Below, one piece after another: positions 9,001-18,000 of a DNA stretch of 64,000 nucleotides (position 1 is the first letter of the stretch; each line of letters begins with the position of its first letter). Made by a program: the position numbers. The stretch lies in the NCBI RefSeq assembly GCF_036507355.1, contig NZ_AP027877.1; one strand, 5' to 3'. This stretch comes from Escherichia coli (GTDB lineage Bacteria > Pseudomonadota > Gammaproteobacteria > Enterobacterales > Enterobacteriaceae).

Positions 9001-12000
9001 CACAGCGCCCTGATCGCCCGTGAACTGGAGATTGGCTGGATTTGCCAGCAGGGTGAGAAACTGTATGCGATACAACCAGAAGAAAAGCTAACGCTGGACG
9101 TTAAAACGCAACGTTTCAACCGTCAGGGTTAAGCCACCGTTCGGATGGCATCGTTCTGATGTCATCCGGCAATTTACTCAGCACTAATGTTTTTTAACTA
9201 CCTGTTATATTTTTCACCAATTTATGATGATTTTTCTTCGCTAATCGCGAACCAAACGCCGCTGGCTGGCTAATAAACAGACGTTATTTGATCACTCTAT
9301 TTCGCCGTTATTTATCCCTTTAATTCCCTTTTCTAAAATGCCTGACAGTTCGCAGAATGAGATTTCGATCATGCAGCTAGTGCGATCCTGAACTAAGGTT
9401 TTCTGATACTTGAATACCGTTTTATTCGGTTTCGCCTAAGGAGAATGATTGATGAAATCCCCCGCACCTTCTCGCCCGCAAAAAATGGCGTTAATTCCAG
9501 CCTGCATCTTTTTGTGTTTCGCTGCGCTATCGGTGCAGGCAGAAGAAACACCGGTAACGCCACAGCCGCCTGATATTTTATTAGGGCCGCTGTTTAATGA
9601 TGTGCAAAACGCCAAGCTTTTTCCGGACCAAAAAACCTTTGCCGATGCCGTGCCAAACAGCGATCCGCTGATGATCCTTGCTGATTATCGGATGCAGCAA
9701 AACCAGAGCGGATTTGATCTGCGCCATTTCGTTAACGTCAATTTCACCCTGCCGAAAGAGGGAGAGAAATATGTTCCGCCAGAGGGACAGTCACTGCGCG
9801 AACATATTGACGGACTTTGGCCGGTATTAACGCGTTCTACCGAAAACACCGAAAAATGGGATTCTCTGTTACCGCTGCCGGAACCTTATGTCGTGCCAGG
9901 CGGACGTTTTCGCGAGGTATATTACTGGGACAGTTACTTCACCATGTTAGGACTTACCGAAAGCGGTCACTGGGATAAAGTCGCGGATATGGTGGCCAAT
10001 TTTGCTCATGAAATAGACACTTACGGTCATATTCCCAACGGCAACCGCAGTTACTATTTAAGCCGCTCGCAGCCGCCCTTCTTTGCCCTGATGGTAGAGT
10101 TACTGGCGCAGCATGAAGGCGATGCCGCATTGAAGCAATACCTGCCGCAAATGCAAAAAGAATATGCTTACTGGATGGACGGTGTTGAAAACCTGCAAGC
10201 CGGACAACAGGAAAAACGCGTTGTAAAACTTCAGGATGGTACCCTTCTCAACCGCTACTGGGACGATCGCGATACGCCACGACCAGAGTCATGGGTGGAA
10301 GATATTGCCACCGCTAAAAGCAATCCGAATCGACCTGCCACTGAAATTTACCGCGACCTGCGCTCTGCTGCTGCGTCTGGCTGGGATTTCAGCTCGCGCT
10401 GGATGGACAATCCGCAGCAACTAAATACCTTACGCACCACCAGCATCGTACCGGTCGATCTGAACAGCCTGATGTTTAAAATGGAAAAAATCCTCGCCCG
10501 CGCCAGCAAAGCTGCCGGAGATAACGCGATGGCAAACCAGTACGAAACGCTGGCAAATGCCCGTCAAAAAGGGATCGAAAAATACCTGTGGAACGATCAA
10601 CAAGGCTGGTATGCCGATTACGACCTGAAAAGTCATAAAGTGCGCAATCAGTTAACCGCGGCCGCCCTGTTCCCGCTGTACGTCAATGCGGCAGCGAAAG
10701 ATCGCGCCAACAAAATGGCGACGGCGACGAAAACACATCTGCTGCAACCCGGCGGCCTGAACACCACGTCGGTGAAAAGTGGGCAACAATGGGATGCGCC
10801 AAATGGCTGGGCACCGTTACAGTGGGTCGCGACAGCAGGATTACAAAACTACGGGCAAAAAGAGGTGGCGATGGACATTAGCTGGCACTTCCTGACCAAT
10901 GTTCAGCACACCTATGACCGGGAGAAAAAGCTGGTGGAAAAATATGATGTCAGCACCACCGGAACGGGGGGCGGCGGTGGCGAATATCCATTACAGGATG
11001 GCTTTGGCTGGACCAATGGCGTGACGCTGAAAATGCTGGATTTGATCTGCCCGAAAGAGCAACCGTGTGACAATGTTCCGGCGACGCGTCCACTCAGTGA
11101 ATCAACAACACAGCCGGTAAAACAAAAAGAGGCGGAACCTACGCCTTAACTTTGCTGTATATCGAGGCTGTATATCGAGCAATGCCATTATGTGCATAAA
11201 ATTGGCATTGCTCTTTTTTCGCCACGAAATGCCCCCCATTCTACGGTCTATGCCTTTATTTTCTTTTATCAGAGAAGATTTTAATTTTATTTTATCAATT
11301 TGTTAATCATTACACCTCTATTTATATTTTTCGCCACTCCGCCATTCTCCCTGACAATTTTCTTGTGGAACAAAGTGTTATTTAAGCAACAAGCAAATCA
11401 TTCTGTCTCTTTAGACAAATTTTGACATCAAACATGATTTTTTCGATATATATGTAAATATATAGCGGTTTTAATTATCAGGATATAACTTATGTCACTA
11501 ACCAGACGGAGGTTTACACAGATTCTTGCGTCAACATTGTTCCTGCATCATCTGCCGTCCTTTGCACAATCAGTCAATTTCTGGGCCTCACTGACGCTTC
11601 CCGAAGCCCAAAACATTACACGCATCGTCAGCGCAGGCGCGCCCGCCGATTTGCTATTGCTGGCTGTCGCGCCAGAAAAAATGGTCGGTTTTTCCTCTTT
11701 TGATTTTGCCCGTCAGGCATTAATTCCATTGCCAGAGCACATTCGCCAGTTACCCAGGCTGGGACGACTCGCCGGGCGCGCCAGCACACTCTCGCTGGAA
11801 GGGCTTATGGCGTTACATCCCGATTTGGTCGTTGATTGCGGCAATACGGATGAAACCTGGATCTCCCAGGAACGGCAGGTTAGCGAACAGACACAAATAC
11901 CCTGGTTATTGCTTAACGGGAAACTGGAGCAATCAGCAGAACAGTTAACAACGCTTGGCAAAACGTTAGGCGAAGAGCATCGCGCCGCAGAACAAGCCAA

Positions 12001-15000: not shown

Positions 15001-18000
15001 CCCTCGCCCCTGCCAGCCGTGACTGGGCGCTCATCTGGTGGGATAGCGTACCGCAGGAGGCACTGCGATGATTTTCCTTTCTCAGGCACAAATCGATGCG
15101 TTACTTCTGGAAGATATCCAGGGCGGTGACCTGACCACGAGAGCATTAAATATTGGACACCAGCATGGCTATATAGAGTTTTTTCTCCGTCAGGGCGGCT
15201 GCGTCAGCGGCGTTTCTGTCGCGTGTAAGATGTTAACTACGCTGGGATTAACTATTGATGACGCGGTCAGCGACGGTTCACAAGCGAACGCGGGTCAACG
15301 GCTAATCCGTGCGCAGGGTAATGCCGCAGCACTTCATCAGGGATGGAAGGCAGTCCAGAATGTGCTGGAGTGGAGTTGCGGTGTTTCTGATTATCTCGCT
15401 CAAATGCTGGCGTTGCTTCGTGTACGTTATCCTGACGGCAATATCGCCTGCACCCGAAAAGCAATTCCGGGCACCCGCTTACTGGCCTCGCAGGCAATTC
15501 TGGCTGCCGGAGGACTGATTCATCGTGCCGGATGTGCGGAAACCATATTATTGTTTGCCAACCACCGCCATTTTCTTCATGACAATCAGGACTGGTCAGG
15601 CGCAATCAATCAGTTACGTCGCCACGCACCCGAGAAGAAAATTGTTGTTGAAGCCGACACGTCGAAAGAGGCAATCGCCGCGTTACGCGCGCAACCAGAC
15701 GTACTTCAGCTCGACAAATTTAGTCCGCAACAGGCAACTGAAATTGCGCAAATAGCGCCGTCGCTGGCTCCCCACTGCACGCTGGCTCTGACCGGCGGAA
15801 TTAATCTGACGACACTCAAAAATTACCTCGACTGCGGCATTCGCCTCTTTATTACCTCCGCGCCTTATTACGCGGCACCGGCTGACATTAAAGTCAGTCT
15901 GCAACCCGCAGCCTCTATTTAATTCTTTGTTAAACGGAATTTATTCTATGAGACTCAAAAAACATTATCTCTGCACAGCATTATCACTTGCCTTTACCCA
16001 GCAGGCCGTAGCGGCTCAGGAGAGCGACTCGCTGACCATATGGTCCAGTCCGGTATCATCGACGACGACCACCGTTCTCGATCAACCCACCATGAAGGCC
16101 CTGGATAAACAGAATGTCGCTCAGGCATTAAGTGTCGTCCCCGGCGTGGTGCTGCAAAAGTCAGGCAGCCGCAACGAAGAACAGGTAAAAGTTCGTGGCT
16201 TTGATAGTCGGCAGGTGCCGGTCTATTTCGACGGTGTGCCCATTTATGTTCCCTATGACGGCAACCTCGATCTGGCGCGGATTCTGACCAACAATCTGGG
16301 GGCAGTCGAAGTTTCCAAAGGGTATTCGTCGCTGCTTCAGGGGCCTAATCAGATGGGCGGAGCCATTAATATCACCACCCAGAAGCCAACAAAACCTCTG
16401 GAAGCAAGTCTGGGATATCGCCAGGGATGGAGCCGTAGCCAGGACAATGCCTACGATATGCATGCTTCATTTGCCGCCAGCAGCGATCTGGGGTATTTGC
16501 AAGTCAGCGGTAGCCAGCTAAAGCAGGATTTTCTCGGCCTGCCGCATGGTGTAAATAATGATATTGCAGGCAACCACGGCAAGATGATTAATTCATCGGC
16601 TGATGATAAACGCGGCATTGTGAAGCTCGGATTTACACCACGTGAAAACGATGAATACTCACTGACTTACATTAAGCAGGATGGTGAAAAAGATAACCCG
16701 CCATACAGCGGAAAAAGTGGTCAAAAATCACGCTACTGGCAGTGGCCAGAGTATGACAAAGAAAGTTTTTATTATCAGGGAACGACCCAACTAAACGATC
16801 GTTTTACCCTGAAAAGTCGGCTGTATCGCGACACCTTTGAAAATACGCTGATGATGTACAACTCGCTGGCTGATTTGAAAAATAAAAAAGGTAGCTACAG
16901 CCATTATTCCGATTACAGCGACGGTGCCGGATTACAACTGGCAGCCGATGTGCGTGAAAACGATCTGCTGTCGTTTGCCGTTAACTGGAAAGATGACGTA
17001 CACCGGGAAAAAGGTGCGCCGCACGCCGCTTACGATCGCTATGAAGATCGTACCTGGTCGCTCGCCAGTGAATATCAATGGGCTGCTGCTGATAATGTCG
17101 ATGTCGTGGCTGGAATCAGCTATGACTGGCGCGATAGCGTAGAAGCGAAAAAACACGAGAAAGATGGCAGCATCACCCATTATGACGACAACAATCAGTC
17201 AGCTTTTAACTGGCAAGTGATGGGGAAATACCACTTTGCCAATGAAGACACGCTGGCGCTTTCGTACTATGACCGCACACGCTTTCCGACGCTGAAAGAA
17301 CGCTATACCACATCCAAACCTGCGTATAACCAGATAGCGATTGTTAACCCGCAGCTCAAGCCGGAACGCGCTCGCGGGGTGGATTTAACCTGGAATGGTG
17401 CCTTCACGCGCGACTGGGGATTTGAGGTCAGCGTTTACTATAACCGGGTGAGTGATGCCATCCTCTCGCACAATATCGATGCCGATACCATTCAAAATCA
17501 GAACAGCGGCACGGTGGATTACAGCGGTCTGGATGCCGGTATTAAGGGGAAAATCAGCAATATACTGGATGTAGGATTGAGCTACGCCCTGATCCACGCT
17601 GACGCCAAACGCAAAGACATCGGCAAGATAACCGATCTGCCAACGCAGACAATGACCGCATGGATGACTCTCAAACCGTGGGAGCCGTTAAGCGTAACGC
17701 TGTCGGAAGAGGCGCGTTCCTCCAGCTACAGCAACAGTGACGGTTCACAAAAAGCCGCCGGTTTTGCGGTGACCCACATTCGAACCGATTACACCTTAGG
17801 TCATGGCTTCAGCGTCAATGCGTCGGTCAATAACCTGTTTGATACCCAATATGCCTACAGTGAAGGGTTTATTGAAGAAGGCCGCAATTTCTGGGCAGGT
17901 GTCGAGTATACGTTCTGATGTGAAAGCGGATAGCGGCATCTGTATCGCTATCCGCCTTATGAAAATCTTATTCTCTTCGCAGGAGGCGGAATACGCCCAG

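Follow-up and report, generated by a model that had tools for sequence, protein, structure and literature searches.

What does the six-gene operon between treA and ymgE of Escherichia coli import, and which signal controls its expression? The locus considered here is contained in a 64,000-nucleotide (64-kb) stretch of contig NZ_AP027877.1 (RefSeq assembly GCF_036507355.1), referred to below as the window. Six open reading frames (ORFs) on the + strand lie between treA and ymgE, and encode, in order, a periplasmic substrate-binding protein (SBP), a FecCD-type permease, an ATPase, a class I S-adenosylmethionine (SAM)-dependent methyltransferase, ModD and a TonB-dependent receptor. The original prediction, which was made from the sequence alone, had placed this six-gene array between treA and ymgE, and both the positions of the ORFs and their family assignments held. 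Because the operon has a conserved ModE operator, and because its permease and ATPase have affinities to MolB and MolC of Haemophilus influenzae, we place it in molybdenum homeostasis. Molybdenum-responsive regulation of the operon is, in our view, highly probable. We further consider it probable that the six genes form an operon that ModE represses and that serves to acquire molybdenum or tungsten with energy from TonB, by way of a MolBC-type importer and with two accessory enzymes.

A predicted ModE operator overlies the putative operon promoter

The upstream region examined for regulators spanned 342 nucleotides (nt). Positions 11220-11491 had been singled out in the original prediction as the place to look for Fur, ModE or riboswitch elements; a ModE box was found there, Fur and riboswitch elements were not, and the ModE box proved decisive. 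The predicted operator, at 11444-11467, reads CGATATATA-TGTAAA-TATATAGCG (core CGATATATA-N6-TATATAGCG) and agrees at 18 of 18 specified core bases with the consensus that PMC545781 quotes for ModE of E. coli, ATCGNTATATA-N6-TATATANCGAT. It is the sole match in the window at 2 or fewer mismatches, with 0 expected from shuffled sequences.

A perfect consensus -35 element, TTGACA, is predicted on the + strand at 11422-11427, and a -10 element, TATATA, at 11447-11452 of the same strand, within the left half-site of the ModE box. The box starts 16 nt past the end of TTGACA, the spacer separating TTGACA from TATATA is 19 nt, and, counted from the box, an AGGA ribosome-binding site comes 13 nt and the start codon 25 nt downstream. 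We provisionally place the operon promoter at this TTGACA/TATATA pair. A box that covers the -10 element and the start point has the geometry of a repressor operator, from which we infer that ModE in its molybdate-bound form would bind this site and repress the operon. In an alignment of Enterobacterales loci, TTGA(C/T) was kept at the same distance from the ModE box, and the only conserved elements of the aligned upstream regions were the -35 TTGA, the ModE box and the ribosome-binding site.

We then asked how regularly such boxes accompany the operon, using 80 loci from 80 species that were gathered by aligning relatives of the methyltransferase and scanning one genome per species. The 1.49 Mb scanned contained 79 ModE boxes with 2 or fewer mismatches, 72 of which stood at starts of cluster genes, and at least one box was present at 57 of the 80 loci. 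A ModE box precedes the orthologous operon in Enterobacterales, Shewanella, Wohlfahrtiimonas and Burkholderiales. Where the spacer ahead of the receptor gene is longer, a second box precedes that gene as well (Shewanella, Morganella, Proteus, Providencia and Pectobacterium).

Two other forms of control were excluded. No convincing Fur box was found upstream, the best match (13/19) being in AT-rich sequence beside the ModE box, and Fur control was rejected. Likewise, an Rfam scan of 10900-18500 at E <= 1 returned no riboswitch and no match of any kind, and control by a riboswitch or other RNA was rejected.

Organization and boundaries of the operon

The SBP gene (11492-12514) is followed on the + strand by genes for the permease (12514-13494), the ATPase (13491-14249), the methyltransferase (14259-15071), ModD (15068-15922) and the receptor (15948-17918). 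The ATPase gene uses a GTG start, which RefSeq also assigns at a locus 99.2% identical to this one. Successive junctions read TAATG, GTGA, a 9-nt gap between the ATPase and methyltransferase genes, ATGA, and a 25-nt gap between the modD and receptor genes. The earlier statement that four of the five junctions overlap, or nearly so, is thus correct for three true overlaps and one near-overlap (the 9-nt gap), and is not correct if read as four overlaps.

Hairpins bound the operon on both sides. Downstream of treA (9449-11149) lies an intrinsic terminator on the + strand (11177-11219), consisting of a hairpin at 11177-11213 with an 11-bp stem and a 15-nt loop (-18.6 kcal/mol, z = -3.8) followed by a U-run; it sets the operon apart from treA transcription. 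The interval between the receptor gene and the convergent ymgE (17968-18255) contains a second hairpin at 17926-17955, whose folding energy is -18.9 kcal/mol (z -3.9) for the + strand and -20.4 kcal/mol (z -5.4) for the - strand; it is likely a bidirectional terminator. Since the six genes are enclosed in this way, they make up a self-contained transcription unit.

Of 5426 complete E. coli genomes, 2139 (~40%) contain the full locus at 95-99% identity, and RefSeq gives its genes generic product names only. In K-12 MG1655, ycgY alone is found between treA and ymgE, as the original prediction had stated. There is no K-12 counterpart for positions 11151-17894 of the window, and ycgY has no nucleotide similarity to the operon. 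Close similarity to K-12 ends ~40 nt before the treA stop codon (window 11110-11150), such that the C-terminus of TreA differs, and returns 24 nt before the receptor stop codon; these last 24 nt of the receptor gene (17895-17918) are retained in K-12. With the exception of these 24 nt, ycgY is a replacement rather than a visible remnant of the operon, and their retention suggests that the K-12 state arose by replacement of the operon.

The importer resembles MolBC of Haemophilus influenzae

The permease is an ATP-binding cassette (ABC) importer permease of type II and of the FecCD/BtuC family, and is MolB-like. When compared to solved structures, its best match was HI1471 (MolB; 217 bits, E 3e-63), followed by FhuB (168 bits), a heme permease (162 bits), HmuU (160 bits) and BtuC (138 bits). 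Its top NCBIfam match was an archaeal-type BtuC model, at 233 bits versus a cut-off of 461. The ATPase is MolC-like, its best solved match being HI1470 (MolC) by a narrow margin.

The SBP (340 residues) belongs to Peripla_BP_2 and bears a Tat-type (twin-arginine translocation) signal. A profile of its family matched 4PAG (1e-52), which is an unnamed structural-genomics protein, then 4OVK, then MolA (HI_1472; 5e-20), and MolA outranked the heme, siderophore and B12 binders. The profile match to MolA covers positions 156-332 only, and that of the single SBP sequence extends over ~80 residues (E 7.5e-8). Residues invariant among 26 family members (R196, S208, H210, D287, P289-P290 and N293-R294) are largely shared with 4PAG and not kept in MolA. 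On these comparisons we assign the SBP to a MolA-related clade, and do not consider it a MolA orthologue. The matches to Peripla_BP_2 and to FecCD/BtuC-type proteins agree with the FecB/BtuF-type binding protein and FecCD-type permease originally described, and with receptor, SBP, permease and ATPase all present, the outer-membrane plus ABC import operon is complete. The twin-arginine signal of the SBP, M-S-L-T-R-R-R-F-T-Q (window 11492-11570), has an RR-x-F/L motif that is kept in nearly all SBP orthologues (L004-L086), suggesting that the protein is exported in folded form via Tat, which is unusual among ABC binding proteins.

In H. influenzae, MolBC-A (HI1470-HI1472) is a type II importer of molybdate and tungstate, described as a 'secondary' low-affinity system, whose locus includes modD (HI1473) (PMC3928620). 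The system described here is like MolBC-A in its type II, BtuCD-like importer, for which MolB and MolC are the best solved matches, in its Peripla_BP_2 SBP of a related clade, and in the presence of ModD alongside. Repression by molybdate is a further likeness: transcription of mol in H. influenzae drops upon addition of molybdate (PMC4031551), and the ModE box predicts the same for the operon of the window. In contrast to MolBC-A, the SBP is not an orthologue of MolA, and the operon adds a TonB-dependent receptor and a SAM-dependent methyltransferase, neither of which is listed for the H. influenzae locus (PMC3928620); the latter instead has a ModA-like gene and salX-cysU (gene order per PMC3928620).

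Most sampled relatives of the receptor are encoded among molybdenum genes

The receptor (656 residues) has a signal peptide, a plug (Pfam Plug, residues 39-139, 7e-21), a barrel (TonB_dep_Rec_b-barrel, residues 226-630, 4e-32) and a C-terminal Phe. By inspection, its N-terminus divides into the signal MRLKKHYLCTALSLAFTQQAVA and a mature sequence beginning AQESDSLTIWSS, and its C-terminus reads VEYTF. A TonB-box-like stretch, DSLTIWS, was picked out by eye against the TonB box of BtuB, DTLVVTA; this is a soft test. The receptor would be expected to depend on TonB in vivo. It reached no curated NCBIfam cut-off and has no close solved structure, and a search of 1.84 billion representatives recovered a family of 397 representative clusters at E <= 1e-30.

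Seven distant relatives of the receptor (28-37% identity) were sampled, and six of them adjoin modE, modABC, TOBE/Mop, DUF364, XdhC or small Oxidored_molyb genes. ModE-type boxes are also present at two of these loci, L093 and L094. At L094 the receptor gene is penultimate in an operon of the order modE-modA-Oxidored_molyb-modB-modC/MobB-TOBE-receptor-TonB, which has a perfect ModE box at its head, and at L090 a ModB/ModC/ModA-like set lies on one side of it and another ModA-like gene on the other. The receptor gene is found downstream of a ModE gene at L095; at L093 it is preceded by a one-mismatch ModE box and followed by genes for DUF364, a nucleoside triphosphatase and an HTH_1 regulator; at L091 it stands beside an ECF-type transporter, three DUF364 genes, XdhC and FmdE; and at L096 beside a PBP_like regulator and a small Oxidored_molyb protein. 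The remaining locus, L092, showed no molybdenum-type gene context. Because the receptors of L094 and L090 share operons with ModA-type proteins, which bind oxyanions, we favor a free oxyanion as the cargo; a receptor that feeds ModA-type proteins most simply carries molybdate or tungstate itself.

Genes of the DUF364/DUF4213 type ('putative heavy-metal chelation') recur beside this receptor family (L079, 3517-4385; L091; L093), with up to three copies per receptor locus, together with XdhC and FmdE. DUF364 has been tied by context to uptake of molybdate, tungstate and vanadium (PMC2954201), and is co-fit with nifH within a modABC operon of Methanococcus maripaludis (bioRxiv 10.1101/2024.03.05.583561).

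Two accessory enzymes belong to molybdenum homeostasis

ModD resembles quinolinate phosphoribosyltransferase (QPRTase) and has the type II phosphoribosyltransferase fold. It scored 501 bits against TIGR01334 (cut-off 178.85) over residues 2-278 of 284, compared to 134 bits against the NadC/QPRTase model, which is under the cut-off of 198. In an alignment to the M. tuberculosis QPRTase, with residue roles as in structure 1QPR, the TRK and HR motifs are retained in ModD, as are the two acidic residues of the phosphoribosyl pyrophosphate (PRPP) site, with K172 replaced by Phe and R105 by Lys. ModD as NadC/QPRTase was rejected on the sub-cut-off score and the incomplete set of quinolinate-binding residues. 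Since K172 and R105 are replaced and the NadC cut-off is not reached, ModD is probably an active phosphoribosyltransferase with a substrate other than that of QPRTase.

The methyltransferase (270 residues) is well modeled by AlphaFold2 (predicted local distance difference test, pLDDT, 91). Foldseek returned generic small-molecule N-, O-, S- and C-methyltransferases only, at template-modeling (TM) scores of 0.5-0.58, and searches of NCBIfam, Pfam and Protein Data Bank (PDB) sequences likewise gave only generic class I small-molecule methyltransferases. The top NCBIfam match was CpaM, a corrinoid-protein methyltransferase, at 44 bits versus a cut-off of 180. Family members share a CDI..ASRST motif and several Trp, Tyr, Arg and His residues as invariants, and the enzyme represents a family of its own that is linked to the ModE regulon. 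Thus the two assignments first proposed, a class I SAM methyltransferase and a ModD-like protein, both stand, the latter through TIGR01334.

Gene contexts elsewhere connect both enzymes to molybdenum. In Aliarcobacter, a classical modE-modA-mop-modB-modC operon headed by two ModE boxes is closed by methyltransferase-ModD. The same pair stands alone behind a ModE box in Edwardsiella piscicida, E. anguillarum and E. hoshinae, and DUF2478-methyltransferase stands alone behind a ModE box in Castellaniella and one Pseudomonas. These contexts therefore indicate that both enzymes belong to molybdenum homeostasis itself, and not solely to this transporter. The original suggestion of a substrate modified after its uptake loses strength, as the pair also closes the Aliarcobacter modABC operon and is found by itself in Edwardsiella. 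At a Comamonas locus the cluster continues directly into modA, modB, ModD and modE, and Burkholderiales loci read modABC-receptor-ModA-like-DUF2478-SBP-permease-ATPase-methyltransferase-DUF364-ModD-ModE. ModD, the methyltransferase, DUF2478 and DUF364 make up an accessory set that accompanies molybdate transporters in many bacteria.

Conservation of the operon across species

A complete same-strand transporter was present within 9 kb at 53 of the 80 methyltransferase-centred loci, and ModD at 50 of the 80; the remaining loci were mostly contigs cut short or copies with visible decay. The methyltransferase and ModD are therefore conserved partners of the transporter rather than chance neighbors, in line with their inclusion in the array as first described. 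The order SBP-permease-ATPase-methyltransferase-ModD-receptor is shared by Escherichia, Citrobacter, Raoultella, Klebsiella, Enterobacter, Serratia, Yokenella, Pectobacterium, Erwinia, Morganella, Proteus and Providencia. A version that lacks ModD is found in Shewanella, Edwardsiella tarda, Neisseriaceae and Wohlfahrtiimonas, and the order receptor-ModA-like-DUF2478-SBP-permease-ATPase-methyltransferase in Burkholderiales, Rhodocyclaceae and Pseudomonas.

Several copies appeared to be decayed. The receptor is split in two in E. albertii; SBP, permease and ATPase are in fragments in Citrobacter koseri NCTC10786; the SBP is fragmented in Providencia stuartii; permease and ATPase are fused or broken in one Morganella psychrotolerans strain; and Pluralibacter gergoviae has remnants only, around an intact methyltransferase that keeps a perfect ModE box. 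Sequencing errors may still account for the decayed look of these five. Pasteurella canis NCTC11621 (L085) has two divergent methyltransferase copies 420 nt apart with equal scores, and neither a transporter nearby nor a ModE box. Finally, a 3.2-kb contig, JAIJJM010000374.1 (L009), assigned to a metagenome-assembled genome of Collinsella sp., showed 99% protein identity to the methyltransferase-ModD-receptor segment of E. coli, and is most likely a binning contaminant of this actinobacterial bin.

Weighing the possible cargoes

The reading that we favor, acquisition of molybdenum or tungsten as a group-6 oxyanion, can be put as a series of steps. The operon would be repressed as one unit by molybdate-bound ModE and switched on by molybdenum shortage. 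The receptor, energised by TonB/ExbBD, would bring the oxyanion through the outer membrane (or, less likely, import a small oxyanion complex). The Tat-exported, MolA-related SBP would catch the cargo in the periplasm, and the MolB/MolC-type (type II) ABC importer would pass it to the cytoplasm, where the co-translated methyltransferase and ModD would take part in molybdenum handling. The cargo and the chemistry of both enzymes are proposed here on the strength of homology and gene context.

Several considerations weigh against this reading. ModE binding, repression and transport are each predictions from sequence. The 19-nt promoter spacer is unusual, and because of this spacing a simple promoter scanner missed TTGACA and gave weak sites only. 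Small oxyanions usually pass through porins, so that a TonB-dependent receptor is not obviously needed; E. coli already possesses ModABC; and K-12 and about 60% of E. coli strains manage without the operon. Our reading assigns no reaction to the methyltransferase or to ModD. Given that the SBP is no orthologue of MolA, it could bind something other than free molybdate, and RefSeq names it 'iron ABC transporter substrate-binding protein'. MolA itself binds molybdate and tungstate poorly, at about 100 uM (PMC3928620, PMC4031551).

Some of these points feed the main alternative, in which import is molybdenum-regulated and the cargo is complexed molybdenum, bound by a metallophore or catecholate, or in the form of a thiomolybdate or a pterin- or molybdenum cofactor (Moco)-type compound, with the enzymes acting to process the carrier or to liberate the metal within the cell. 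It transfers to a molybdenum setting the original idea of a substrate that may be modified once taken up. TonB-dependent receptors and type II importers such as BtuCD and HmuUV usually carry bulky chelates or cofactors, and the host genomes also have ModABC, sometimes in the same super-locus, which suggests that the two systems handle different chemical species. The poor affinity of MolA for free molybdate (100 uM), the invariant pocket-type residues of the SBP that are absent from MolA, the retention by ModD of most QPRTase substrate and PRPP residues, and the resemblance of the methyltransferase to small-molecule enzymes point the same way. However, genes for metallophore biosynthesis accompanied the locus in 0 of 80 species. 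Methyltransferase-ModD also occurs with classical modABC or without any transporter, and is therefore not bound to an imported carrier, and relatives of the receptor share operons with ModA/TupA-type proteins, which are binders of bare oxyanions. We regard complexed molybdenum as a possible but rather doubtful cargo. A bolder proposal, in which the receptor is the first dedicated TonB-dependent molybdenum/tungsten receptor, a methyltransferase-ModD-DUF2478-DUF364 pathway builds or dismantles a molybdenum carrier, and the cargo of MolBC is a molybdenum complex rather than free molybdate, is speculative and on balance unlikely. Such a pathway might, for instance, N-alkylate or phosphoribosylate a ligand of the pyridine-carboxylate type and in this way release or capture the metal.

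Uptake of an iron chelate, of the siderophore or ferric citrate type, would fit the RefSeq name of the SBP and the weak NCBIfam likeness of the operon proteins to FecB, FepB and TonB-siderophore models. Scores against iron families were far under their cut-offs (e.g. 31 bits versus 320), the ModE box is the sole conserved operator and no Fur box accompanies it, and in other taxa the neighboring genes are mod genes rather than iron genes, making this cargo very improbable. Among known E. coli iron systems, the NCBIfam models for FecB/C/D/E, Fep, Fhu and EitC were all tried and rejected as far under cut-off. Cobalamin uptake was rejected on BtuB scores of 69-79 bits (cut-offs 600-836) and BtuC scores of 190-233 bits (cut-offs 334-461); none of the curated NCBIfam cut-offs for iron, heme or B12 families was reached by an operon protein.

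A corrinoid or heme system, despite the BtuC-like permease (233 bits, cut-off 461), the weak CpaM match (44 bits, cut-off 180) and the small receptor, is scarcely credible given the absence of a cobalamin riboswitch or other Rfam element, scores that all lie below cut-offs, a permease nearer MolB (217 bits) than BtuC (138) or HmuU (160), and ModE regulation and mod-gene contexts that point elsewhere. The siderophore and corrinoid cargoes entertained in the original prediction are thus unlikely, there being no Fur box, no riboswitch and no iron, heme or B12 cut-off reached.

Other features of the window

Three further segments differ from K-12. The first, at 22673-24601, is a 1.9-kb segment that is not in K-12, which has a partial IS1414 and ymgM there; an ORF at 23236-24672 encodes a 478-residue leucine-rich-repeat protein whose repeat region is similar to those of SlrP and SspH2, both type III effectors (E 5e-22, with scores well under the family cut-offs). 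The second contains an intact gene for a 1103-residue AIDA-I/Ag43-type autotransporter (40901-44212) beside an IS1 transposase fragment (44512-45015); for 40901-45030, K-12 has only the ycgI pseudogene remnant. The third, at 46324-50300, consists of a truncated autotransporter barrel (46324-47547) followed by IS3 and IS1 transposase genes, and replaces ~24 kb of K-12 that includes pdeG, ycgZ-ymgA-ariR, bluF-bluR, iraM and the e14 prophage, with the window resuming at icd.

Discussion

Passage of molybdate across the outer membrane is normally ascribed to porins, and in the textbook account it enters E. coli by ModABC, by the sulfate system and by a low-affinity route that has yet to be assigned. 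The operon described here shares with E. coli ModABC/ModE its predicted regulator, the architecture of an operator placed over the promoter, and the presumed metal. ModABC is a type I system with a ModA-type (SBP_bac_11) SBP and no dedicated outer-membrane part, whereas the system of the window is type II and adds a receptor and two enzymes.

In its combination of a receptor, a Peripla_BP_2 protein and a type II importer under control of a sensor of the transported nutrient, the system is like BtuB-BtuFCD. TonB-dependent receptors for metals are known, as ZnuD serves for zinc and OprC for copper. Unlike BtuB-BtuFCD, ZnuD and OprC, the present system has ModE as its predicted regulator, and its receptor scores under all B12, copper, heme and siderophore cut-offs and belongs to a separate, mod-associated family. 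ModD of the window, like that of Rhodobacter capsulatus modABCD, is a full-length member of TIGR01334, and, like DUF364 (PMC2954201; bioRxiv 2024.03.05.583561), is an uncharacterised accessory that travels with molybdate transporters. In contrast to R. capsulatus ModD, it is translationally coupled to a methyltransferase and lies inside a TonB-dependent system.

Our literature search found no account of the operon, of a ModE-regulated TonB-dependent receptor or of the methyltransferase, in agreement with the initial impression that this is not a characterised E. coli system. Studholme & Pau 2003 or RegPrecise may list the operator, and a Shewanella regulon paper lists ModE, with detail on the operon absent from its text; 'uncharacterised', rather than 'never noticed', is the fitting description.

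If our reading is correct, molybdenum acquisition would gain an active step at the outer membrane, through a TonB-energised pathway under ModE control, in the ~40% of E. coli that carry the operon, and in Citrobacter, Proteus, Providencia, Morganella, Serratia, Klebsiella, Raoultella and Shewanella. A 2023 study of Proteus mirabilis modA invoked other, unknown transporters (PMC10174112). The operon, which P. mirabilis carries (L050), would then be a candidate for such 'other transporters', by which modA mutants are rescued in organisms such as this one (PMC10174112). How bacteria compete for molybdenum in the gut and in the urinary tract would become directly testable.

The finding would also bear on H. 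influenzae, in which molybdate represses molB via an 'unknown factor' (Rice et al. 2014, PMC4031551). Because ModE boxes front the homologous systems described here, ModE is the obvious candidate for this repressor, and would account for molybdate repression of the related mol operon. Finally, the operon would offer a tractable entry, in E. coli, to four families (ModD, the methyltransferase, DUF2478 and DUF364) that widely accompany molybdate transporters.

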